Of a stretch of DNA of 64,000 bases, positions 3,825 through 58,226 are shown piece after piece. The DNA is from Methanofastidiosum sp. GTDB lineage: Archaea; Methanobacteriota_B; Thermococci; Methanofastidiosales; Methanofastidiosaceae. Where the stretch lies: positions 18,093 through 82,092 of the forward strand of contig JABLXD010000007.1 in the NCBI GenBank assembly GCA_013178285.1, in the 5' to 3' direction. A model generated the notes under the pieces. It did not search any database, had not been told where the DNA came from, and was given only the letters and a program-made list of their open reading frames with translations. The position numbers and the translations under genes were made by a program. Positions within the stretch are counted from its first letter, which is position 1, and the number at the start of each line of letters is the position of its first letter.

Positions 3825-5696
3825 TCAAGAAGATTTGATGATTTCTTCTATCTTTTCTTTTACGATTTTATTAATTAAACTACCATCTACTTTTCCCCTA
3901 AATTCCTTCATGCATAAACCCATTAGTGGAGAAATAGCACGGTCTCCTTTTTCTATTATGAAATCTCTTTTCTCTAGGATAATTTTCTCAATTGCAGATT
4001 CAACGTCAGAAGAATTGTTCTCTGAAGAGAACTCTGATAAGACTTTTTCAATATCTTCTCCTTTTGAAACTCTCTTCAAAACCTCTTCAATCCCTTCTTT
4101 TGCTATAATCCCTTTTGATACTTTTTCAAAGAGTAAGTATAGGATTTCATCATCTGTTACATATCCTTCTTCTCTTTCTAGATTTTTTGAAAGATCTAAA
4201 GCTTTTATAAATATAGTAGATTTTATATCAAGGGAAGATGAAACTTTTTCAAAAAGTTCAGGGCCTTCATAAACTATTCTTTCCGCCTCTTCCTTCTTAA
4301 GCCCATATTTGTCGATAAATCTGTTAACCTTCTCATCAAAAGTTTCAGGCAGATTAATTTTAATTTTTTCTATTAATTCTGATTGAATAGAAAATGGAGG
4401 GATATCGGTTTCAGGATACATCCTTGCCCTTCCTGGAAGTGGACGAGAATATTTTGAATTCCCATCTTCTAATGCATCCCTTGTTTCATTGGGAACTTCA
4501 GAAAATGCCTTTTTGCACCTCTCAAAGACTTCTTCTAAAGCCTTATAGCATATGTTCTCCTTCCCAGTTACGATAACAAAAGAATCCATTTCTTCAATCT
4601 TAAGTTTTGTTTTTACTTTAGTTACTTCATCTATTGTTATTCCATAGTTTGGAAGTTCATCTATATGGAATAGTCCAGAGAGTCCATATGTTTTCACATG
4701 ATCCGCTAGTTCTGTTCCAAATCTTCGCCCTTTTTGAATTTCATTTCCAAGAATTCCTCTGAAATTTTTCAATTTTATTGCATAGACTCCTCCATTCTTT
4801 TTGATGGAACTAGCAATTATCTTAGATGAAGTATTATTAAAAATATCAGTAAGTTCAGTGACCTTAAACTCAAGATCTTTTTCAGATCCTCTTTTATACA
4901 ATTCTTTCTTAATTTCAACGAGATTGATCTGTCTTTCAATTTCTCTTTCAATCCATAAAGGTATCATTTCTAGTTTTTGGACTCCTTTTAGTTCAACTCT
5001 TCCACCTTCTCTAATGGAAACATTTAGATCTTGTCTTATTGTTCCTAAACCTCTCTTTACCTTCCCCGTTGCCCTTAAGATTTGCCCCAAAATATATGCC
5101 GCTTCTTTTGCCTGTTCGGGATTAGAAATATCGGGGCCAGTAGCTATTTCAACTAAAGGTATTCCCAATCTATCAAGCCTAAATGTTTTAGTGGTATCAT
5201 CTTGACTAATTAATCTAGCCGCGTCTTCCTCGAGACATACTGTTAGAATTGAAACTGGACCTTCTTTAGTTTCAATGTATCCATCTGTTGATATAAGCAT
5301 GGTTCTCTGAAAAGCAGAGGTATTTGATCCATCAAGAACAGTTTTTCTCATCACCTGTATCTCTTCAACTATATTAGAATTAAGCAGTAAAGAAACTTCA
5401 ACTCCAATTACCTTGGCTTCTTCAGAAACAAGATGGGGTGGTTCTTCATCAAGTTCAACTAGACAGTTTGTATCATAATATTGGTAGATATAGGTTTTAC
5501 CCCTCATATATTCTTTTAAAGCGGCAACGTCTACTTCACCTATTTCAGAAGGGGTTGGCCTTAGTTTTCTTTCAATTGTATCAAAAGGATCATCAGTTCT
5601 AAGAACTGTTGGACAATCACAAAATAGTTTTCTTTTAGTATTTAATTGTTGATGGATTTCTAATCCTACTCTAAGTCCAAGTTCCTTATAGTCCAT
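3825..5696 (-). CDS. gatE: Glutamyl-tRNA(Gln) amidotransferase subunit E
   Basis: The 623 aa protein has the GatE N-terminus MDYKELGLRVGLEIHQQLNT..KLFCDCPT. It overlaps gatD by 11 nt. Confidence 0.9.
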   Translation of the reverse strand: MDYKELGLRVGLEIHQQLNTKRKLFCDCPTVLRTDDPFDTIERKLRPTPSEIGEVDVAALKEYMRGKTYIYQYYDTNCLVELDEEPPHLVSEEAKVIGVEVSLLLNSNIVEEIQVMRKTVLDGSNTSAFQRTMLISTDGYIETKEGPVSILTVCLEEDAARLISQDDTTKTFRLDRLGIPLVEIATGPDISNPEQAKEAAYILGQILRATGKVKRGLGTIRQDLNVSIREGGRVELKGVQKLEMIPLWIEREIERQINLVEIKKELYKRGSEKDLEFKVTELTDIFNNTSSKIIASSIKKNGGVYAIKLKNFRGILGNEIQKGRRFGTELADHVKTYGLSGLFHIDELPNYGITIDEVTKVKTKLKIEEMDSFVIVTGKENICYKALEEVFERCKKAFSEVPNETRDALEDGNSKYSRPLPGRARMYPETDIPPFSIQSELIEKIKINLPETFDEKVNRFIDKYGLKKEEAERIVYEGPELFEKVSSSLDIKSTIFIKALDLSKNLEREEGYVTDDEILYLLFEKVSKGIIAKEGIEEVLKRVSKGEDIEKVLSEFSSENNSSDVESAIEKIILEKRDFIIEKGDRAISPLMGLCMKEFRGKVDGSLINKIVKEKIEEIIKSS

Positions 5697-13384: not shown

Positions 13385-15138
13385 TTGGCATTAAGAGAAA
13401 TGACACCATATAGAAGATTTATGTCAGCTATGGCCGGTGGTCGTGTTGACAGAACACCTACTATAGTACTTTCAAACTTTTGTAAAGAATTAATGGCTTC
13501 AACAAACGTTACCTGGCCAGCATGTCAGACTGATTCAAAGGTTATGGCACAGTTCCAGGCAGGCAGATATGAAGTTTGGGGATTAGATTTACTTATATCC
13601 CACAATGATTTAGTATCTGAATCAACTATGCTTGGTGCAGATATTGATTTAGGAACTGATTTAAGACATCCATCTGTATTAAAACATGTTCTTGAAAACA
13701 CTGACCCAACAAAATACAACTTGCCAAAAGACGTTATATCCAAGGGAAGAAATCCAATTGTTGAAGGTTCAACTAAGATTCTAGTCGAAAAATATGAAAA
13801 ACTTGTTCCTGTTTTTAGAACTGTTACAGGTCCAATGACCATTGCAGGTCACCTTTGGGGCGTAGACAGAATATTAATGTGGTCAAAACAAGAAGAAAAG
13901 AAATTTGAAGCTTGTCTTGATATTTGTACTGATCTTTGTATTGAAATCTTAGGAACTCTGTTGATTCAAGTGGCGCAGATGGATTTTACATGCCTGATCC
14001 AACAGCTTCAGGAGACTTACTTGATCCAAAGGATTACCAGTACTTCCTTGAGCCAAGATATAAGAGAATGACAAAGGAATTAAAAGATACTATGTCTATC
14101 TTACATATCTGTGGTGACACAAGAGGTTACATGGACAGGATACCACACTCTGGATTTGATGCATTCTCATTCGAGGCACCTGGTACCTCAGTTAAAGAAG
14201 CAGTTATGGGTCTTGGAGACAGGGTTACACTCGTCGGAAGTTTGGAAACAATCCCAGTCGTCATGATGGGTACACCAGAATATGTTTACACACAATCACT
14301 TAGAGATATTGCAGATGGAGTAGATATTCTTTCTCCAGCATGCGGTACACCACCAATGACTCCAAATGCAAACATAAGGGCCATGGTAGAAGCTTGTGGG
14401 CCAAAGAAAGTAAAGAGAAAAGTCGTTGCGCTAAGCAAAGAAGAGATTATAAAGAAGTACACACCAGCAAAACCTGAATTTGCAGAAATTACAAAAGCAG
14501 TCATGATAGGTGACGCAGATAAAGCTGAAAAGCTCGTAGTAGCTGCACTCGAAAAAGGATTAAAGCCAATTGATTTAGTAGAGGAAGCATTGTTACCTGG
14601 TGCAATTGGTGTAGCAGAAATGTACGATGGTGGATACGCATTCGTTCCTGAAATATTACTCGCTGCAAACGCAATGAAGAAAGGTATCAGCCACTGCCAG
14701 AGCGCAATGGGAGATGTCAAGCCAAAAGGTAAGATTATTATGCACGTTGCATTCGGTGACGTTCACGCCATTGGAAAAGACATTGTAAAGTCAATCTTGA
14801 TTGCAAAGGGATACCAAGTTACTGATCTAGGGGCAAGTGTTCCATGGGATAAAGTAATTGAAGCTGCAAAGAAAGAAAAACCTGATGTAGTATCCGGTAC
14901 TGCTTTAATGACAACAACAAGAACTGCATTCCCCAAGGTAGCCGAACTTATGAAGAAGGAAGGATTAGAGGTCCCATTCATAGTTGCCGGTGGAGCAGTC
15001 GACCCAGCTTACGCAGAGACAATGGACTATGCAATATACTGTAAAGGACCAGGAGATGCTGAGCCTGTCTTTGAAGGTATAAGAAAAGGCAAGAAGTGGC
15101 AACAAATCAGAGAAGAAGAACACAAGAAATACAAATAA
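13385..15138 (+). CDS. MtaA/MtsA-family (URO-D fold) methyltransferase fused to a C-terminal corrinoid (B12)-binding domain; interrupted by a 1-nt frameshift near 13945-13955
   Basis: The N-terminus MTPYRRFMSAMAGGRVDRTP matches the methylcobamide:CoM methyltransferase family, and the region CIEIL/NSVDSSGADGFYMPDPTASGDLL aligns with MtaA (SIEYAKAQIEAGADAVMIADPVASPDL). The C-terminal half has B12-binding_2 plus B12-binding motifs (GDVHAIGKDIVKSILIAKGYQVTDLGASVP). It starts at TTG preceded by GGAGG. ORFs 13385-14071 (frame 2) and 13990-15138 (frame 1) overlap. Confidence 0.8.
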
Positions 15139-16505: not shown

Positions 16506-16661
16506 ATTACTTTATAATTTTACTAATGTTATAACCGGTTTTAATATAACCTGAAAGAAGGGAGTTTCCATTATATTACAACCTTTATATTGGATAAACT
16601 TCTTTCCCTATTTTCCCTAATTTTTTCCATATCCTTAAATATATGGAAAAGATGAAATTAA
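16506..16661 (+). repeat. Intergenic module A, copy 1 (156 bp), promoter-like, with hairpin and TATA-embedded palindrome
   Basis: This copy is near-identical to 56501-56656 (same length, no indels; differences are concentrated in 16550-16570). It contains TTTATAAT, the stem TAATATAA/TTATATTA, and TTCCATAT-N8-ATATGGAA overlapping TTAAATATAT. Confidence 0.85.
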
Positions 16662-16690
16662 TCAAATTGAATTTAAGTAAGAGAGATTAA

Positions 16691-17068
16691 ATGACATTAG
16701 ACAATAACTTAATTGTTGTATTTTTATTACTTAGCTTAGTCGAACTCTTAACTTTTTTTTCTATTTTAAATAGTCTAAGATATCGTAAATATGGCAAATT
16801 GATTCGAATTGATGCGAATATTCCAGAAACTCATTATACTGGAAATGGTGTTCTAGCCTACCTAATTCTAATCTTTATGTTTGTTAATCTCTTTGCTATA
16901 TTTCTTTTGAAATTTTGGGGTTTCGTATTTTCAGTTCTATGGATAACCTTTAGCAGTATTTTCCTCTACTGGTACTGGCACACCAAGGAAGATCCTCTAA
17001 ATCGTTTCCACTACGAGCAGAAGGTCTGGGAGGATCCAAGGGACAAGAAGAAAAAGGAGACCAACTAA
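16691..17068 (+). CDS. Hypothetical small membrane protein (125 aa, three predicted TM helices)
   Basis: The ORF has hydrophobic segments and a Lys-rich C-terminus. Its stop overlaps the start of the next ORF (TAAATG). Confidence 0.5.
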   Translation: MTLDNNLIVVFLLLSLVELLTFFSILNSLRYRKYGKLIRIDANIPETHYTGNGVLAYLILIFMFVNLFAIFLLKFWGFVFSVLWITFSSIFLYWYWHTKEDPLNRFHYEQKVWEDPRDKKKKETN

Positions 17069-17752
17069 ATGACATCCGACTTCAAACCCGGCAAAGCATA
17101 CCTGATAGAAGGCAAGGGCATAGAACAGGTGAAGAGTGAGATCAAGGATTGGCTTACTGAAAAAGGGATAGAAGTAAAAGAAGAAGATGAAAATTCACTT
17201 ATAGCGTATAATTATTTTTATAGTTTCAAGATTAGCCAGATATGGATTAGTCTAAAATTGGAAAATCACATTTCTGAAACTGTTATCACTTTTGATGAAA
17301 GAGTATATAGGTTTCAGATGTGGTTGATTGTTGGGGGCCAGTACTATTACCTCGACGAAATAAGAAAAGATATGGTAAGGTATCTCAAAGGAAAAGATGA
17401 AATTGGCATCAATACAATTGGCAGATATTGCGCTTTATCATACTTGCCCATGTTGCCTGCCTTAATATTTTGGGGCGTTCCATTCTTTTCGGGAATGTTT
17501 TCCATCGTGCTTGAAGAGAGTATCTGGAATTTATTTATGAAATTATTTCTAATTTTTATCTTAATTGGTAATTTATGCTCTATGTATCTAGAATTTGTCC
17601 CTCTTAGAAAAAAATTAGACGCTCTTGCAAATTCATATGAACACTATATTGAAAAATATTCGGGAGAAGAGTATAAGGTGGACATATTTCCACTTATTGG
17701 ATATTTTTTTATCTGTCTAATATTCTTCTTTTTTATAATTTACCACATATAA
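17069..17752 (+). CDS. Hypothetical membrane protein (227 aa; about 110 aa soluble N-domain followed by TM helices)
   Basis: It is translationally coupled to the upstream ORF, and the pair is bracketed by repeat modules A1 and B1. Confidence 0.5.
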   Translation: MTSDFKPGKAYLIEGKGIEQVKSEIKDWLTEKGIEVKEEDENSLIAYNYFYSFKISQIWISLKLENHISETVITFDERVYRFQMWLIVGGQYYYLDEIRKDMVRYLKGKDEIGINTIGRYCALSYLPMLPALIFWGVPFFSGMFSIVLEESIWNLFMKLFLIFILIGNLCSMYLEFVPLRKKLDALANSYEHYIEKYSGEEYKVDIFPLIGYFFICLIFFFFIIYHI

Positions 17753-17760
17753 GACGAAAT

Positions 17761-17797
17761 TATAGTTTATTAAGTTAAACTTTATAATTTTACTAAT
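17761..17797 (+). repeat. Intergenic module B, copy 1 (TATAGTTTATTAAGTTAAACTTTATAATTTTACTAAT)
   Basis: This copy shares the 22-mer ACTTTATAATTTTACTAAT with module A and matches 58062-58100 almost exactly. It is followed by the hairpin ATTACAgggcttTGTAAT. Confidence 0.7.
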
Positions 17798-17890
17798 ATT
17801 ACAGGGCTTTGTAATATAATGAAGAATTCAATGAACTGTTTTATCTAAGAAAGGAATTAGTATATAAAAATAAATAAAATAAAATTTATT

Positions 17891-18790
17891 TTATGGAACA
17901 ACTAGTTGTATCCTTATTGTGTCAAATGTTCCATTTGTAGAGTAAGCTACCATAGAGATATTATAAGTTCCTGATGGAACGTTTGTACCTACTGTGAATG
18001 TTGCGCTGTATGTACCTATATTATGTGCCTTTATTGTCTGTGTAGCTGGAGTTAATTCTACTGTGACTCCATCTGGGAGCCCAATGAATCTTACTCTTGC
18101 ATCCTTTTGTGTAAAGAATCCTCTGTTCTCAACTTGTATCATTGTCTGCTGTACACCAGGCAAAACATTGAAAGCTGAGATGATTTTACCATCCTTTATT
18201 ATGGTTGCGCCACCGCTAACTGCAAATCCTTCAATGTCGACTTTTGGGTATAAAGCCTGCTTTCCTTTACATTCACAGATTGAGTAAAGTTTCCAGGAAT
18301 AGGTAATAGGACAATCTGAATTCTCGCTGTTTACAACTTGAATACTTTCAAATTCTTTTATTACACTTCCTTGTATAAATTCATTCTCACTAAAAGGAAA
18401 CCTAATATCCACACCATCTACAACTCCGCACTCTGGGTCAAATTGAGGTGAGCTAATCCCGTGTTCTTCTCCTTTATAGTAAGCTGTAATCCAAAAAATT
18501 GCTAGAGGGGGGTCTCCTGTACATTCTATGCATTCTTGTGTTTGCCCTTTTATTTGGAGATAGTAATAACAATCTTCAAGAATAAAAGAAGGTACACTAT
18601 ATGATCTGTTTTCGCCAGGTTGAAGAGTTGTGTTAAATGACCAAACTAGTTTTTCATTATAGCACTCAAAAGGCACCCCTTCAACAAACATATCGTCCAT
18701 TGGATTCTGACCAAGTACTGTTGAAAGGCTACTAATCGCCAATAAAAATATACCAATTAAAGCAATGATTCCTTTTTTCATGTTTACCAC
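17891..18790 (-). CDS. Hypothetical secreted/anchored Cys-rich protein with a C-terminal Ig-like (CARDB-like) domain
   Basis: It has an N-terminal signal/TM segment (MKKGIIALIGIFLLAISSLSTVLGQ) and 9 Cys. The C-terminus has a beta-sandwich-like pattern. Confidence 0.45.
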   Translation of the reverse strand: MVNMKKGIIALIGIFLLAISSLSTVLGQNPMDDMFVEGVPFECYNEKLVWSFNTTLQPGENRSYSVPSFILEDCYYYLQIKGQTQECIECTGDPPLAIFWITAYYKGEEHGISSPQFDPECGVVDGVDIRFPFSENEFIQGSVIKEFESIQVVNSENSDCPITYSWKLYSICECKGKQALYPKVDIEGFAVSGGATIIKDGKIISAFNVLPGVQQTMIQVENRGFFTQKDARVRFIGLPDGVTVELTPATQTIKAHNIGTYSATFTVGTNVPSGTYNISMVAYSTNGTFDTIRIQLVVP

Positions 18791-18887
18791 CTTTAATATT
18801 CATTTAAATGAAATCTTAATATTATATAAAAGTTTTGGATTTTACCGAGGGATTATTTGAAAGGGCCAATTTAAATATCCATTTATA

Positions 18888-18930
18888 TTTTATTAAGTTA
18901 AATTGAACTATTTTACTAAAATTACAAGCC
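18888..18930 (+). repeat. Intergenic module B-like, copy 3 (degenerate)
   Basis: TTTATTAAGTTAAAttgaacTATTTTACTAAaATTACAAGCC combines the B core with the ATTACAAGCC segment seen in module A2. Confidence 0.4.
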
Positions 18931-20018
18931 TAGTATTTATCAGGCCTCATTTTTTTGATAAGCTTTATTTTTTTAGAAATGTCTTTGCCTCTAACTTTCT
19001 CTGTAACCCTGCCCATCTCATTCTGTTTTATAGTAAGATATTCTATTTCTTTTTTCAGTTTAAGATAATGCTCATACCGACGTGCTTCAAGATCACCGTT
19101 TTCAATAGCATTCTTCACAGCACAGCCTGGTTCACTAATATGGGTACAATCTGAAAATCTACAGTTATTTGAAAGTGCTTCTATATCAGAAAAGACATCA
19201 CTAACATCGTCACCATCAGACCATAATTGAAGTTCTCTCATCCCAGGATTATCAATAATCATCCCTCCATTTGGAAGCATAATCATCTCTCTAAAAGTCG
19301 TAGTATGTCTCCCATGGCTATCAGATTTTCTTACAGAACTAACTTTTTGACGGTTTGTGCCAAGTAGTTTATTAATAATAGTTGATTTGCCTACGCCAGA
19401 AGATCCGAGAAGAGCTATAGTCTTTCCTTTTTCAAGATATTGTTCAATTGACTCCAATCCTTCATTTAACTCTGCACTCAAATTATGTATTGGAACATTT
19501 GGGGCTATTTTTTTCACTTCTTCTAACTTTTGATCGAGGTCATTGCAAATATCAGATTTATTTAGTACAATAACTGGCCTTGCGCCACTCTTTGAAACTA
19601 AAGTAAGGTATCTTTCAATCCTCTGGATATTAAAATCATGATCAAGTCCTGATACAATCAAAACCACATCAACATTTGCAAGTAAGACCTGTTCTTCTGT
19701 AAGTTTACCTGCAATTTTTCTAGAGAATTTGCTCTTTCTAGGTAGAACTTCATGAATAGTTCCCTTGTTATTAATCTCAATCTTTATGATCACCCAATCT
19801 CCAACTACGGGGAAATTACTTTTGTCCAGTGTATTAAATCTAAATTTACCAGAAACTCTAGATTCTACCTCGCCTAGTTCTGTAATCACCATGAAGCTTT
19901 TACGTTGGACTTCAGTGATACGGCCAGGTATCAATCCTTCTTCTTTAAATTCGGTAAAATTATCCTCAAAGTAGGAATCCCAGCCGATAGTTTCAAGATC
20001 AATTGATGAATTTTCCAT
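18930..20018 (-). CDS. rsgA: Ribosome small-subunit-dependent GTPase A (circularly permuted GTPase RsgA/YjeQ)
   Basis: Motif order is G4 (NKSD) then G1 (GSSGVGKST) then G3 (DNPG), with an N-terminal OB-fold region and the C-terminal zinc knuckle CRFSDCTHISEPGCAV, which is RsgA-specific. Confidence 0.85.
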   Translation of the reverse strand: MENSSIDLETIGWDSYFEDNFTEFKEEGLIPGRITEVQRKSFMVITELGEVESRVSGKFRFNTLDKSNFPVVGDWVIIKIEINNKGTIHEVLPRKSKFSRKIAGKLTEEQVLLANVDVVLIVSGLDHDFNIQRIERYLTLVSKSGARPVIVLNKSDICNDLDQKLEEVKKIAPNVPIHNLSAELNEGLESIEQYLEKGKTIALLGSSGVGKSTIINKLLGTNRQKVSSVRKSDSHGRHTTTFREMIMLPNGGMIIDNPGMRELQLWSDGDDVSDVFSDIEALSNNCRFSDCTHISEPGCAVKNAIENGDLEARRYEHYLKLKKEIEYLTIKQNEMGRVTEKVRGKDISKKIKLIKKMRPDKY

Positions 20019-56500: not shown

Positions 56501-56656
56501 ATTACTTTATAATTTTACTAATGTTATAACCGGTTGTAATATAATCCAAAACTAGCAAACTTGTCTTATATTACAAGCCTTATATTGGATAAACTTCTTT
56601 CCCTATTTTCCCTAATTTTTTCCATATCCTTAAATATATGGAAACGATGAAATTAA
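56501..56656 (+). repeat. Intergenic module A, copy 2 (156 bp)
   Basis: It has the same length as copy 1 and is collinear with it. It is identical except for a few flank substitutions and the 21 nt hairpin loop (56545-56565). Confidence 0.85.
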
Positions 56657-58066
56657 ATGAATAGAATGCGAACTGAAGCCGATTTATCGCGCCCACCATT
56701 AATAATATTGATATCCCTAGTACTGGGAATTATCTTAACTGGAATTACAAAGACATACTATGGGCAACCTAAATCCATGAATATTATTTACATTTCAATA
56801 TTGCTTTATATTTTAATCATCGTAACTATTGCCTTGGCTTTATACAAAGGGCTAATAACAGAGATGAGGCACAATATATTTTCAAGGAAGAAAGCATTTG
56901 TCAATGATGAAGAAGAGCCTGAGGATAGTATATATCTAGAAAATATGGAGGGCGGTAAGGATTGCTGTCCTTATTGTAATAAAGAAATATTTGACTACTG
57001 GGATATCTGTCTTTATTGTGGGAATAGTTTGAAGTATAAGAGCAGGTTCAGATTTCTAAACACTAGAAATTTATTTTCAGCAAATAAAGCATCAAGCGAT
57101 TACGAAGAAGATCCTGAAGATAGCATAGATTCAGACGATATGGATGATGATAAGGATTACTGCCCCTACTGTAATGAGGAAATATATGGCAGTTGGGACA
57201 TTTGTCTGCATTGTGGAAAAAATCTAGAATTAAAGAAAGGCATAATTTACAAATTCAAGAATCCCATTTCTATTTTATCTATACTCCTGATAGCTTTTAT
57301 GATAATATGGGCCATAACACTATCCTTTGCTCCAAATGCTGAAGAATATACTATGGAAGGAAATTCATTATACAATCAAGGAAAATACGACGAGGCTCTA
57401 GAGAAGTTTGATAAGGCTTTAGAGATAAATCCTAATTTTGCTTATGCATGGGAAGGCAAGGGTCTTGTACTTCATAATAAAGGAAAATACGACGAGGCTA
57501 TTGAATGTTATGATAGAGCTATTGCCATAAATCCTAATTTTGCTCAGGTTTGGTATAACAAAGGACTTGCATTTGAAGAGCAGAGTAATTATATTAAATC
57601 TATAGAATGCTATGATAAGGCAATTTCAATAGATTTAAACTATATTTACGCGTGGGAAGGAAAGGGAATAGTATTTTATATACAAGGTAATTATCCCCTA
57701 GCGATCGAATGCTATGATAAGGCAATTGCCATAAATCCAAACTATGCATCCGCATGGGTTAACAAAGGGGCTGCTTTTTTAATACAAGGAAAATACGATG
57801 AAGCTATTGAATGCTTTGACAAAGCGATTGTTATAGATCCTAATTTTGCTTATGCTTGGTGTAACAAGGGACTTATACTTGGAGCTCAAGGCAAATACGA
57901 TGAAGCTATTAAATACTATGATAGAGCTATTTTAATCAATCCAAATTTTGCTTTTGCATGGTATAACAAAGGACTTGCACTTAAAAAACAAGGTTTGTAT
58001 TTTGAATCCATTATATGTTTTCAAAAGGCAAAAGAACTTGGTTACAAAGAATCGGCCAATCTATAG
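56657..58066 (+). CDS. Membrane protein with two tandem zinc-ribbon/acidic modules and about 7 C-terminal TPR repeats
   Basis: It has an N-terminal TM helix, then the duplicated module EEEPEDSIY..CCPYCNKEIFDYWDICLYCGNSL and EEDPEDSID..YCPYCNEEIYGSWDICLHCGKNL, a second TM helix, and repeated 34-aa units (W-GKG--L---G-Y-EAIECYDKAI-INPN-A-AW). Confidence 0.65.
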   Translation: MNRMRTEADLSRPPLIILISLVLGIILTGITKTYYGQPKSMNIIYISILLYILIIVTIALALYKGLITEMRHNIFSRKKAFVNDEEEPEDSIYLENMEGGKDCCPYCNKEIFDYWDICLYCGNSLKYKSRFRFLNTRNLFSANKASSDYEEDPEDSIDSDDMDDDKDYCPYCNEEIYGSWDICLHCGKNLELKKGIIYKFKNPISILSILLIAFMIIWAITLSFAPNAEEYTMEGNSLYNQGKYDEALEKFDKALEINPNFAYAWEGKGLVLHNKGKYDEAIECYDRAIAINPNFAQVWYNKGLAFEEQSNYIKSIECYDKAISIDLNYIYAWEGKGIVFYIQGNYPLAIECYDKAIAINPNYASAWVNKGAAFLIQGKYDEAIECFDKAIVIDPNFAYAWCNKGLILGAQGKYDEAIKYYDRAILINPNFAFAWYNKGLALKKQGLYFESIICFQKAKELGYKESANL

Positions 58067-58100
58067 TTTATTAAGTTAAACTTAATAATTTTACTAAGTT
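58062..58100 (+). repeat. Intergenic module B, copy 2
   Basis: TATAGTTTATTAAGTTAAACTTAATAATTTTACTAAGTT overlaps the TAG stop of the TPR gene and matches 17761-17797. Confidence 0.7.
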
Positions 58101-58226
58101 TATTATCCTAGCATAATTTTTTATCTAATTAAGGAAATTATACTAAGACTAATCCAGACCCTATACCCAAAAATTAATCAGTATTTAGATAGATTTTAAA
58201 TATATCTTAAACCTCTTTTATTATAG

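Follow-up and report, generated by a model that had tools for sequence, protein, structure and literature searches.

Within a stretch of 64,000 nucleotides from a Candidatus Methanofastidiosum MAG, referred to here as the window, two similar intergenic modules of 156 bp (module A, 16506-16661; module B, 56501-56656) lie upstream of non-homologous genes. Module A precedes genes of 125 and 227 aa, and module B precedes a TPR gene. The locus raises the question of what the module is and how it came to stand in front of different genes. Comparison with related genomes suggested that it is probably the conserved 5' end shared by small gene cassettes of one family, which is specific to Candidatus Methanofastidiosum. 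Such cassettes may be an archaeal way to move ready-to-express genes without a transposase of their own.

Copies of the module

Alignment and a repeat finder (family D2) showed that the two copies were collinear and equal in length. Outside the loop (16550-16570 in copy A and 56545-56565 in copy B), 4 differences were counted in 121 compared columns, corresponding to an identity of 96.7%. The description of two near-identical collinear copies in the first-pass annotation was thus confirmed, but its figure of about 98% was slightly too high. Sub-patterns of the module of 24-36 nt occurred exactly twice in the window, compared with 0-0.01 times in shuffled sequences, and the earlier proposal that the module was functional or recently exchanged DNA, not a chance resemblance, was supported. 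A third copy of the module was found in the same sample, upstream of the genes of contig L036. In addition, the window contained three partial copies on the same strand, at 17762-17819, 18885-18936 and 58063-58114, by which the cargo genes were bracketed. The partial copies had been absent from the first description.

It had been cautioned that the two copies could be an assembly artefact, and the origin of the window from a MAG and the stopping of short-read contigs in the repeat would be compatible with this or with a chimera. The Logan contigs of SRR6186653 indeed ended within the module on both sides, as expected of a true repeat. In two independent assemblies of other samples (L032 from JGI and L047 from ENA), the module was spanned with unique flanks on both sides, and single contigs with unique flanks were also obtained for L041 and L037, so that independent samples and sequencing centres were represented. 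The contig breaks together with the spanning assemblies ruled out this objection, and the probability of an artefact was regarded as practically negligible.

Architecture of the cassettes

Each unit consisted of a left end (a half-site centred on TTACTAA), a hairpin, a putative promoter/operator block of ~50 bp (the R-part), one to five small genes and the right end ATAGTTTATTAAGTTAA, which provides stop codons in all three frames. Where a right end meets a left end, they form a composite site of 37 bp, D3, which reads ATAGTTTATTAAGTTAA followed by ACTTTATAATTTTACTAAT and was identical in sequence across copies. D3 contains the palindrome P1 (21 bp, TTATTAAGTT-A-AACTTWATAA) and a second palindrome P2 (ATAATT-TTACTAA-AATTAT) centred on the invariant TTACTAA. 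The two ends of a cassette are 10-bp inverted repeats of each other, namely the two arms of P1. The parts in the window are as follows.

16506-17778: cassette A1, with module A at its 5' end
16506-16661, + strand: module A, composed of L-part, loop, hairpin 3' arm, connector, R-part and relic
16506-16549, + strand: L-part of module A, the right half of D3, containing the invariant TTACTAA (16520-16526) and the small hairpin H1 (16528-16546)
16537-16583, + strand: hairpin H2, with arms GGTTTTAATATAA and TTATATTACAACC and a 21-nt loop at 16550-16570, in which modules A and B differ
16571-16583: 3' arm of the hairpin, followed by the connector
16603-16648, + strand: R-part of module A, putative promoter/operator, with direct half-sites TTTCCCTAT, TTTCCCTAAT and TTTTTCCATAT
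16625-16648, + strand: palindrome in the R-part of module A, TTCCATAT-CCTTAAAT-ATATGGAA
16635-16642, + strand: TATA-like box TTAAATAT of copy A
16652-16661: short relic
16691-17752, + strand: cargo of A1, two coupled genes, one for a membrane protein of 125 aa (16691-17068) and one for a protein of 227 aa (17069-17752)
17762-17819, + strand: D3a, junction of A1 and A2, with the A1 right end ATAGTTTATTAAGTTAA at 17762-17778
17779-17819, + strand: left end of A2 within D3a, ACTTTATAATTTTACTAAT plus H1
17779-18901: cassette A2, without the R-part promoter block
17891-18790, - strand: cargo of A2, a 299-aa secreted-protein gene
18885-18936, + strand: D3c, an attR-type site, with the cassette right end ATATTTTATTAAGTTAA at 18885-18901 and then the host-type half ATTGAACTATTTTACTAAAATTACAAGCC...
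56501-58079: cassette B, with module B at its 5' end
56501-56656, + strand: module B
56501-56544: L-part of module B, with TTACTAA at 56515-56521, followed by the loop at 56545-56565
56598-56643: R-part of module B, with its palindrome at 56620-56643
56630-56637, + strand: TATA-like box TTAAATAT of copy B
56657-58066, + strand: cargo of B, encoding a membrane protein of 469 aa that has TPR repeats and a double zinc ribbon
58063-58114, + strand: D3b, an attR-type site, with the cassette right end ATAGTTTATTAAGTTAA at 58063-58079
58080-58114, + strand: host-type half in D3b, ACTTAATAATTTTACTAAG..., which matches the empty site of L044

It was observed that the first 42 nt of the module recurred at 17779-17819 and in part at 58080 and 18902, each time preceded by ATAGTTTATTAAGTTAA (by ATATTTTATTAAGTTAA at D3c) directly after the stop codon of the cargo; the TAG of the 469-aa gene even lay inside the D3 left half. 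The same bracket was found in L036, L032, L047, L013 and L041, in the last of these in both orientations. Cassettes occupied intergenic sites singly or in tandem, and in the tandem array of L032 a full D3 plus module separated the two cassettes. Intergenic sites without a cassette showed just a palindrome resembling the right half of D3 (ATAATWTTA-C-TAAWATTAT). In the L041/L037-type species the R-part was present without a recognisable D3 right half upstream and a GGCC-containing motif was found instead, suggesting that the rule for the left end is lineage-specific.

These comparisons changed the reading of several parts of the module. The box TTTATAAT, previously taken for a first BRE/TATA element, is better regarded as belonging to a recombination-type repeat whose centre is the invariant TTACTAA; its position is occupied in another species by TGAATGAT, which is no TATA box. 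The AAAC said to precede it was confined to two related copies of shorter length, at 17779 and 58080; in both modules TTAC stands there. Likewise, the unit proposed to be a portable promoter cassette is more than a promoter: it has a defined 3' end, the D3 left half, and the cassette at 17779-18901 lacks the promoter block. The claim that each module ends immediately before an ATG held for copy B (56656/56657), but copy A ends 29 nt before it.

The cargo consisted mostly of shuffled paralogues of membrane or TPR proteins. The 227-aa protein belongs to a family, 'MTSDF', found only in Methanofastidiosa; its AlphaFold model gave weak KA1/BamC-N-like matches (E ~0.01) without a functional lead. 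Unrelated cargo was also seen: L041 carried an FMN reductase, and in the window and L013 secreted proteins were encoded on the opposite strand. These secreted-protein cassettes carried D3 sites at both ends and had no R-part. Defence-system and family searches on the cargo found nothing.

Scanning a collection of genome contigs from species representatives, of which the source genome is not one, with the 19-mer ACTTTATAATTTTACTAAT yielded 27 matches, and one was meaningful (L013, a Methanofastidiosum MAG). Metagenomes contained two matches to a 22-mer of the R-part, both by chance in unrelated DNA. Viral, plasmid and phage collections searched with D3, the R core, the full element, the cargo family and the L037 integrase were all negative, and a tRNA search found nothing.

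Empty sites and exchange of cargo

At locus A, the left flank followed the empty site of M. methylothiophilum collinearly as far as ...TTTTGAAAT and diverged beyond it, which placed the junction of host and cassette at ~16505/16506. In L045 and L046, the gap between the RsgA and glyoxalase genes was 71 nt and the whole block 16506-18901 was absent. In L044, the YgiQ-AtwA gap was 234 nt and the cassette of locus B was missing. Both gaps retained only the right-half palindrome. The right halves of D3c and D3b in the window matched the empty-site sequence of the sister species, not the cassette consensus. The 'empty' sites could, however, be secondary deletions between direct repeats instead of unoccupied targets.

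At locus B, L047 also carried the module and D3, but its cargo was entirely different. Its flanks were 98.8% and 97.9% identical to those of the window; the identity was lost after 56644 and came back in D3, with four different genes in between. Both break points thus fell in sequence that is conserved, one behind the R-part and one within D3, a position that would suit homologous recombination no less than site-specific recombination. The divergence of the module (about 5%) was not above that of the adjacent flank (about 3%). Furthermore, an 85%-identical orthologue of the 227-aa gene was located in L032 between EamA and CrcB genes, neither of which is in the window. The empty sites and the cargo swap fit the earlier suggestion of a mobile or recombining unit with the module at its 5' end.

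A T/A polymorphism at locus B and an ATTG match at locus A both indicated the centre of P1, and the crossover would lie within D3, probably at this position. The two loci could not be reconciled with one exact core.

The putative promoter/operator block

The 24-nt core TTCCATAT-CCTTAAAT-ATATGGAA of the R-part showed no difference in 9 of the 10 copies, which come from at least four lineages, and had no match in 201 kb of control DNA. All 10 copies faced the adjacent start codon. The distance from the TATA-like TTAAATAT to the first ATG was ~27-32 nt in six of them, a leaderless-type spacing, and 50-73 nt in the others; ordinary genes of the window have TATA-like boxes 25-45 nt upstream. By geometry only, this arrangement corresponds to an archaeal core promoter, in which a TATA box directed toward the gene would lie ~26 nt before the transcription start. 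From the placement of TTAAATAT, transcription would begin at the first start codon or shortly before it. No recognisable purine-rich BRE was present next to the TATA-like box, where the upstream sequence is CCATATCC, an arm of the palindrome. The distance of 40-60 nt to the start codon given in the first-pass annotation applied to copy A (56 nt), but in copy B it was 27 nt. The spacer of the palindrome, which had been equated with the TATA-like element, is in fact CCTTAAAT, and TTAAATAT overlaps both this spacer and the right arm.

In the L034 lineage, all five half-sites were altered (TTCC to TTAC and GGAA to GTAA) in two copies with different genes downstream, and such a coordinated change suggests recognition by a protein rather than a hairpin. 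Together with the invariant core, the joint change makes a fairly strong though indirect case for the half-sites as candidate protein-binding sites. The earlier view of the palindrome TTCCATAT-N8-ATATGGAA over a TATA-like box as operator-like was supported by the invariant core, the orientation toward the gene, the leaderless spacing in 6 of 10 copies and the half-site change in L034. In the proposed arrangement, three direct and one inverted TTCC(A/C)TAT half-sites around the TTAAATAT TATA box would be bound by a dimeric or oligomeric transcription factor, which would occlude or recruit TBP/TFB, and a run of T6-7 just 5' of the palindrome may insulate the promoter from read-through.

The loop and the hairpins

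The 21-nt segment was not generally hypervariable: four of five loops share the consensus CCWAAAACTWGYAAACTTGYC, and copy A is the sole outlier. A hypervariable guide or spacer was therefore rejected, and a programmable or variable region was not supported. DGR-type variation was rejected because the loop differences were not adenine-specific, and a C/D-box or H/ACA reading because consistent boxes were absent by inspection.

The module could instead be a structured RNA, either a 5' leader, a riboswitch-like element or an sRNA of ~85 nt from the TTTATAAT box to the T6 run, with hairpins H2 and H3 as its functional parts. Both copies indeed folded better than shuffled sequences (z of about -3.6), a U-G replacement in L032_2 left H3 paired on the + strand, and the loop of copy A could pair with a downstream pyrimidine tract (16590-16609). 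On the other hand, no Rfam family matched at gathering score anywhere in the window (the best reached 26 bits compared with 80), 18 of 22 pairs were invariant, and the covariation score equalled the shuffle mean. The last figure is uninformative, since the H2 stem was nearly invariant in 5 copies and offered too little variation. In L034 the upstream direct half-sites changed with the palindrome arms, although a hairpin does not need them; the L041/L037-type species lacked H2 and the TTTATAAT box and still conserved the R-part; and the expected transcription start lies downstream of the R-part. Both the RNA and a functional role for its hairpins were judged improbable.

Proposed mechanism and rival explanations

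Comparison established the bracket architecture, the empty sites at both loci, the replacement of cargo, the tandem array elsewhere, the invariant core and the joint half-site change; the exchange mechanism, site-specific or homologous, is our inference from them. A cassette would run from the D3 right half through the AT-rich hairpin H2, the R-part and one to five small genes to the D3 left half ATAGTTTATTAAGTTAA. No recombinase gene was found in the 64-kb window or inside any cassette, and the cassettes appear non-autonomous because none of the examples seen carried one. A recombinase acting in trans on D3 would insert, excise or exchange them, the candidate being an Xer-like tyrosine recombinase, and a circular excised form would join ...TTATTAAGTTAA to ACTTTATAATTTTACTAAT of the same cassette. 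Cassettes in a circular or excised state were not seen. Alternatively or in addition, homologous recombination could use the module and D3 as portable homology arms. In L037-L040, an Xer-like tyrosine recombinase gene lay directly 5' of an R-part array; the integrase locus of L037 had the R-part and no D3, so the link between recombinase and cassettes is weak.

The same data could be read as the signature of a regulon or of paralogues. An operon family would then have been inherited vertically and duplicated, with the module as promoter, D3 as terminator or 3' element and no mobility; purifying selection and gene conversion would maintain the similarity, and the differences between genomes would be deletions. 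That history would accommodate cargo from few paralogous families co-occurring in different orders, the promoter geometry and operator-like design of the R-part, the TTTT following P1 in D3 as a possible weak terminator, and the position of the L047/window break points in conserved sequence. It does not readily explain why sister species lack a cassette at two loci and retain just one half-site there, why cargo is wholly different at one site despite flanks that are 98-99% identical, why orthologous cargo has another neighbourhood in L032, or why unrelated genes (the FMN reductase of L041 and the opposite-strand secreted proteins of the window and L013) are carried. We consider it unlikely.

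A canonical integron, with D3 (and H1/H2) as attC, ordinary cassettes and an IntI elsewhere in the genome, would account for single and tandem non-autonomous small-ORF units with a palindromic site between them, and archaeal MAGs have been reported to contain integrons (PMC9668308). The L037 recombinase also gave a match to the integron-integrase family, but a weak one (67 bits versus a cut-off of 265), and it is nearer to XerA. An integron was nevertheless considered very improbable: D3 is conserved in sequence, H2 (GTTGTAA...TTACAAC) shows by inspection the reverse of the attC R''/R' box order, most cassettes have a 5' promoter of their own, cargo lies on either strand and not in one orientation in a single array, cassettes occur in ones and twos at several intergenic sites away from intI/attI, the window contains no IntI, and the archaeal integron survey makes no mention of Methanofastidiosa. 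That the module is a MITE, or the end of an IS with an outward promoter by chance, is scarcely credible. Such an element would be a repeated intergenic sequence with inverted repeats, and the 10-bp P1 arms would serve as its ends; but no transposase was found in the 11 related Methanofastidiosa loci examined, there were no matches in plasmid, phage or viral collections, and 10 of 10 R-part copies faced an adjacent gene start. Instead of a target-site duplication of fixed length, the flanking repeat was a 17-40-nt copy of the element's own end, and each insertion adjoined a pre-existing copy of that end, which is typical of site-specific rather than DDE transposition.

It is possible, and we suggest it tentatively, that the cassettes represent an undescribed integron-like system, unrelated in sequence to integrons, in which a tyrosine recombinase, dedicated or housekeeping, moves cassettes into and out of many short palindromic TTACTAA-centred sites over the chromosome and each cassette brings its own promoter under one shared transcription factor. 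If so, a newly acquired gene would join a ready-made regulon, and a methanogen-related archaeal class without a cultured representative would possess a platform for cassette exchange that, unlike integrons, has a conserved regulated promoter per cassette and many small chromosomal sites. It would also account for strain-level variation in membrane and TPR proteins and for assembly breaks at these places. Should the regulon part alone hold, there would still be a new and well-defined cis-regulatory motif.

Comparison with known systems

The attC sites of integrons are conserved mainly in structure, and D3 is unlike them in being 37 bp long, identical in sequence across copies and without the R''/L''/L'/R' organisation. 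The likeness lies in small units of one or few ORFs that lack their own recombinase, stand singly or in tandem with a palindromic recombination-type site between them, and have junctions that are hybrids of two halves; in both, the site can provide the stop codon of the cargo. However, integron cassettes rely on Pc, whereas those of Methanofastidiosum mostly have a conserved promoter/operator and are dispersed over the chromosome with no adjacent intI/attI and cargo on either strand. Integron gene cassettes with attC, attI and IntI have been reported also for archaeal MAGs (PMC9668308).

In Acinetobacter plasmids, Xer-dependent dif modules rely for their movement on a housekeeping-type tyrosine recombinase acting in trans, as do IMEX elements (PMC6449649, PMC13141974, PMC5357621). 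They resemble the present system in that gene modules bounded by short palindromic core-type sites are shuffled between close relatives, and the sole recombinase near an array here (L037-L040) is Xer-like. P1 and P2 are of a size suitable for dif, but their arm and spacer lengths differ from 11-6-11 bp; the sites of dif modules are inverted XerC/XerD sites, in contrast to the direct repeats with two overlapping palindromes found here, and the present elements are chromosomal and archaeal.

In the minimal mobile elements of Neisseria, different cassettes occur between conserved flanks in close strains and mobility genes are absent. Cargo exchange at one site is common to both, and homologous recombination would fit the window/L047 break points. 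In contrast, the cassettes described here bring homology arms (module and D3) that recur at several loci, and they are also found at sites that are empty in relatives. Near-identical upstream regions before non-homologous genes in one genome have been called putative mobile promoters (PMC3488235, PMC3575422), and modules A and B and the L036 copy show just this. That category is descriptive, whereas here the promoter belongs to a bracketed unit whose 3' end is defined, and genome comparison lends evidence for both insertion and replacement.

The proposal offers testable sequences. One is a candidate recombination site of 37 bp, and another is a putative 24-bp operator whose natural variation in specificity (TTCC versus TTAC) might point to the cognate regulator through co-variation. 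The candidate promoter/operator and integration site are also compact and might be of use in genetic tools for archaea.

Some archaeal repressor operators overlap the core promoter, as does the NrpR operator GGAA-N6-TTCC in Methanococcus. The R-part is similar in having palindromic TTCC/GGAA half-sites on or beside the TATA box or transcription start, a placement that implies steric control of TBP/TFB or RNA polymerase. It differs in the orientation and spacing of TTCCATAT-N8-ATATGGAA, in the TATA box within the spacer and in three to four extra upstream half-sites. In some species, a further inverted half-site was observed upstream.

Two copies of a module with a predicted promoter

The first-pass annotation had described two collinear, near-identical copies of a 156-bp module, and pairwise alignment bore this out: 16506–16661 (module A) aligned without gaps with 56501–56656 (module B), and 4 of the 121 compared positions differed when a 21-nt segment (16550–16570 / 56545–56565) was left out. 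Apart from tandem TPR units, the repeat finder returned no long dispersed repeat in the window other than the modules, and module sub-patterns of 24–36 nt occurred exactly twice in the window and almost never in shuffles. In the short-read contigs of SRR6186653, the left contig ended 30 nt into the module and the right one began within it. An assembly artefact had been considered, which was opposed by the presence of modules inside single contigs of independent assemblies from other samples; the repeat is present in reads and is real.

A 'Candidatus Methanofastidiosum sp.' MAG encodes a protein with 100% identity to the 227-aa cargo protein, whose relatives were all from Methanofastidiosa. The remaining window genes were archaeal housekeeping genes in synteny with other Methanofastidiosum contigs, and searches of the window found no tRNA and no Rfam family. 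The repeated module is real and functional, and the best description of it is the 5' end, bearing a promoter, of a gene-cassette system specific to the lineage.

Cassette ends and the composite site D3

Bracketing of the cargo by further partial copies had been missed. A 42-nt stretch at the start of the module (ACTTTATAATTTTACTAAT, then a small hairpin H1, then TGTAATATAA) was repeated on the same strand at 17779–17819, with looser copies at 58080 and 18902. Each of these was preceded by ATAGTTTATTAAGTTAA, which started 0–10 nt from the cargo stop codon and carried stops in each of the three frames (TAG, TAA and TAA); the TPR gene of cassette B terminated on this TAG. The ATAGTTTATTAAGTTAA half and the module-start half made up a composite site of ∼37 bp (D3), with one palindrome (P1) of TTATTAAGTT-A-AACTTWATAA and a second (P2) centred on TTACTAA. 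This centre was found in 15 of the 16 copies examined, the exception being one copy at locus L041 of another species (TTACCAA). The repeated module starts and the ATAGTTTATTAAGTTAA halves preceding them therefore led us to read the two loci as bracketed cassettes.

Cassettes and D3 sites in the window
Locus A, in order: glyoxalase gene, module A, 125-aa and 227-aa genes, D3a, 299-aa gene (minus strand), D3c, RsgA gene
16506–17778: cassette A1
17762–17819: D3a (right end ATAGTTTATTAAGTTAA at 17762–17778)
17779–18901: cassette A2
18885–18936: D3c (right end at 18885–18901)
Locus B, in order: AtwA gene, module B, TPR gene, D3b, YgiQ gene
56501–58079: cassette B
58063–58114: D3b (right end at 58063–58079)

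The cargo gene of cassette B contained, at 57377–58031, five tandem 102-bp units of 64–74% identity, which were TPR repeats unrelated to the module.

Empty sites and cargo replacement

The suggestion that the module was the 5' end of a mobile or recombining unit gained support from related loci, with empty sites in L044 and in L045/L046 and replaced cargo in L047. In M. methylothiophilum (L045/L046), whose RsgA was 81% identical to that of the window, the gap between the RsgA and glyoxalase genes was 71 nt and the entire 16506–18901 block was absent. In L044, with AtwA 81% identical, YgiQ adjoined AtwA without the TPR gene. Both empty sites retained only a palindrome like the right half of D3 (ATAATATTA-C-TAATATTAT at one site and ATAATTTTA-C-TAAAATTAT at the second). 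The left flanks in the window were collinear with the empty sites as far as the module start, and D3c and D3b agreed in their right halves with the host empty-site sequence, not the cassette consensus (ATTG... at locus A; CTTAATAA instead of CTTTATAA at locus B), which put the junction at the P1 centre or close to it.

In the near-identical strain L047, AtwA was 99% identical to that of the window and the flanks were 98.8% and 97.9% identical, and the locus-B site had a module and a D3 enclosing four different genes. Past 56644 the two sequences ceased to match, and the match returned within D3. At the level of sequence comparison, these loci showed cassette turnover at fixed sites, as gain or as loss. 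Because these break points lie in conserved sequence, the data fit site-specific and homologous recombination alike, and either would be a candidate mechanism. L047 also had an extra 147-aa acetyltransferase gene (3875–4318; window ∼58131–58160) between D3 and the YgiQ promoter, absent from the window; this made two indels at one hot spot, the second with no D3 at its far side.

A predicted promoter/operator block

The proposal that a palindrome lying over a TATA box acts as an operator was strengthened by the promoter/operator block of the module (R-part). Nine of the 10 copies shared an identical 24-nt core, TTCCATATCCTTAAATATATGGAA; they spanned at least four lineages, with cargo proteins that were often only ∼35% identical. 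Unrelated control DNA totalling 201 kb gave no match to the core. Direct half-sites (TTTCCCTAT / TTTCCCTAAT / TTTTTCCATAT) lay ahead of the core, with an extra upstream inverted half-site in some species. All copies pointed at the adjacent start codon, and TTAAATAT was located 27–32 nt ahead of the ATG in six of the ten, which is the geometry of leaderless archaeal mRNA. TATA-like boxes of ordinary window genes were mostly 25–45 nt upstream, and the YgiQ promoter contained the closely similar TTTAAATATAT.

The orthologous region upstream of the gene in the L034 lineage aligned with the R-part, and its five half-sites were all TTAC/GTAA, not TTCC/GGAA; the variant had a second copy, which sat before another gene. 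Since the change included the direct repeats, it was as predicted by co-evolution with a DNA-binding protein, whereas a hairpin needs only two arms changed. The R-part is a well-supported predicted promoter/operator, and we infer a regulator acting on it.

Hairpin H2 and the module end

The 21-nt segment was the loop of a second hairpin (H2), with a consensus common to four of five loops and copy A as the outlier. Covariation analysis of five modules was uninformative, as 18 of 22 pairs were invariant, and the inverted repeats by themselves account for the folding z-scores of about –3.6. The copy-A loop (16550–16570) was strongly complementary to a pyrimidine tract GGATAAACTTCTTTCCC (16590–16609) 40 nt downstream; the pairing energy of –15.2 kcal/mol was attained by 6 of 2000 shuffles, compared with –3.9 kcal/mol for the copy-B loop. 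We give low weight to the idea that this loop may be an inverted copy of the template-switch type, forming a longer hairpin in copy A alone.

Homology of the two modules stopped at GATGAAATTAA, which in L041 was followed by the start of a TPR gene (ATGAAATTAATCAATG...). A 12-codon ORF (MKLIKLNLSKRD) was observed at 16652–16690, with its stop overlapping the ATG of the 125-aa gene. The opening codons of the ORF matched L041 9174–9189, preceding the TPR gene behind the same promoter. Given the continuation of GATGAAATTAA into that gene, the ORF seems to be what remains of a first gene that was deleted or recombined.

Related loci

In L032, which carried an 85% orthologue of the 227-aa gene, two cassettes stood in tandem in a neighbourhood different from that in the window (EamA, module, three genes, full D3 plus module, one gene, D3, CrcB). 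In L036, from the same sample, the contig began in the last 30 nt of the module, had three small membrane ORFs and ended within D3. L013, from another MAG, had two direct-orientation D3-type sites around an opposite-strand secreted-protein gene, the same arrangement as cassette 17779–18901. L041 had three R-part copies in both orientations, each facing an operon (an FMN reductase gene; TPR + 129 + 191 + 153 aa; 128 + 119 + 84 aa), and D3 closed two of these three units. The cargo proteins were from a few paralogous families in varying orders, plus unrelated genes.

A 68-nt inverted repeat in L041 (9938–10005 and 11420–11487, 94% complementary) joined the gene junctions of two convergent cassettes, and the 5' ends of MTSDF-family genes were highly conserved at the DNA level among paralogues. 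Both are possible internal recombination points, which would explain mosaic cargo, e.g. the 92% identity of L036 and L047 over 595 nt followed by divergence.

A short GGCC-containing motif (TAGGGCCAAAT / TTAAGGCCA) was observed ∼25 nt after D3, and 20–30 nt before the R-part in other species (L041 9096–9121, 11081–11106, 6800–6815, 7820–7835 and 12245–12270; L037 9515–9550 and 11425–11500; window 18863–18871). It may mark the cassette boundary in other species, instead of the H1/H2 region of the window lineage. A conserved block upstream of the R-part (L037 9476–9522, L041 9058–9104) contained a perfect 16-bp palindrome TTAAAGGATCCTTTAA, and followed an integrase gene in one species and an unrelated gene in the other.

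Comparison with known systems

The cassette system was alike in logic to integron cassettes (PMC9668308), Xer-dependent dif modules (PMC6449649, PMC13141974), minimal mobile elements and 'putative mobile promoters' (PMC3488235). The system may belong to the Xer-dependent group; P1 and P2 are palindromes of a fitting size, with arm and spacer lengths other than 11-6-11. Assignment to integrons failed on attC box order as judged by inspection, on IntI with adjacent attI, and on promoterless cassettes of single orientation in one array. The end of a known IS or MITE had been offered as an alternative, and the testable defining features of both were lacking. Phage, plasmid and viral collections gave no match.

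No recombinase was found in the 64-kb window or in any cassette. At L037–L040, an R-part array was immediately preceded by the gene for a 406-aa Xer-like tyrosine recombinase. P. abyssi XerA was the best solved relative of this protein (E = 4e-17), which fell below the NCBIfam XerA cut-off. D3 was absent at this locus. This recombinase is a lead only, as a candidate cassette recombinase.

Other genes in the window

A URO-D/B12-binding methyltransferase at 13385–15138 was split into overlapping ORFs in different frames (13385–14071 and 13990–15138), while its syntenic counterpart in M. methylothiophilum (L045 12472–14226) was one 584-aa ORF; a frameshift, a pseudogene and an assembly error are all possible explanations of the split. 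RsgA is usually a bacterial ribosome-assembly factor. The RsgA-type GTPase at 18930–20018 was conserved and syntenic in Methanofastidiosum, and its nearest relatives outside Methanofastidiosa were from bacteria or DPANN archaea.
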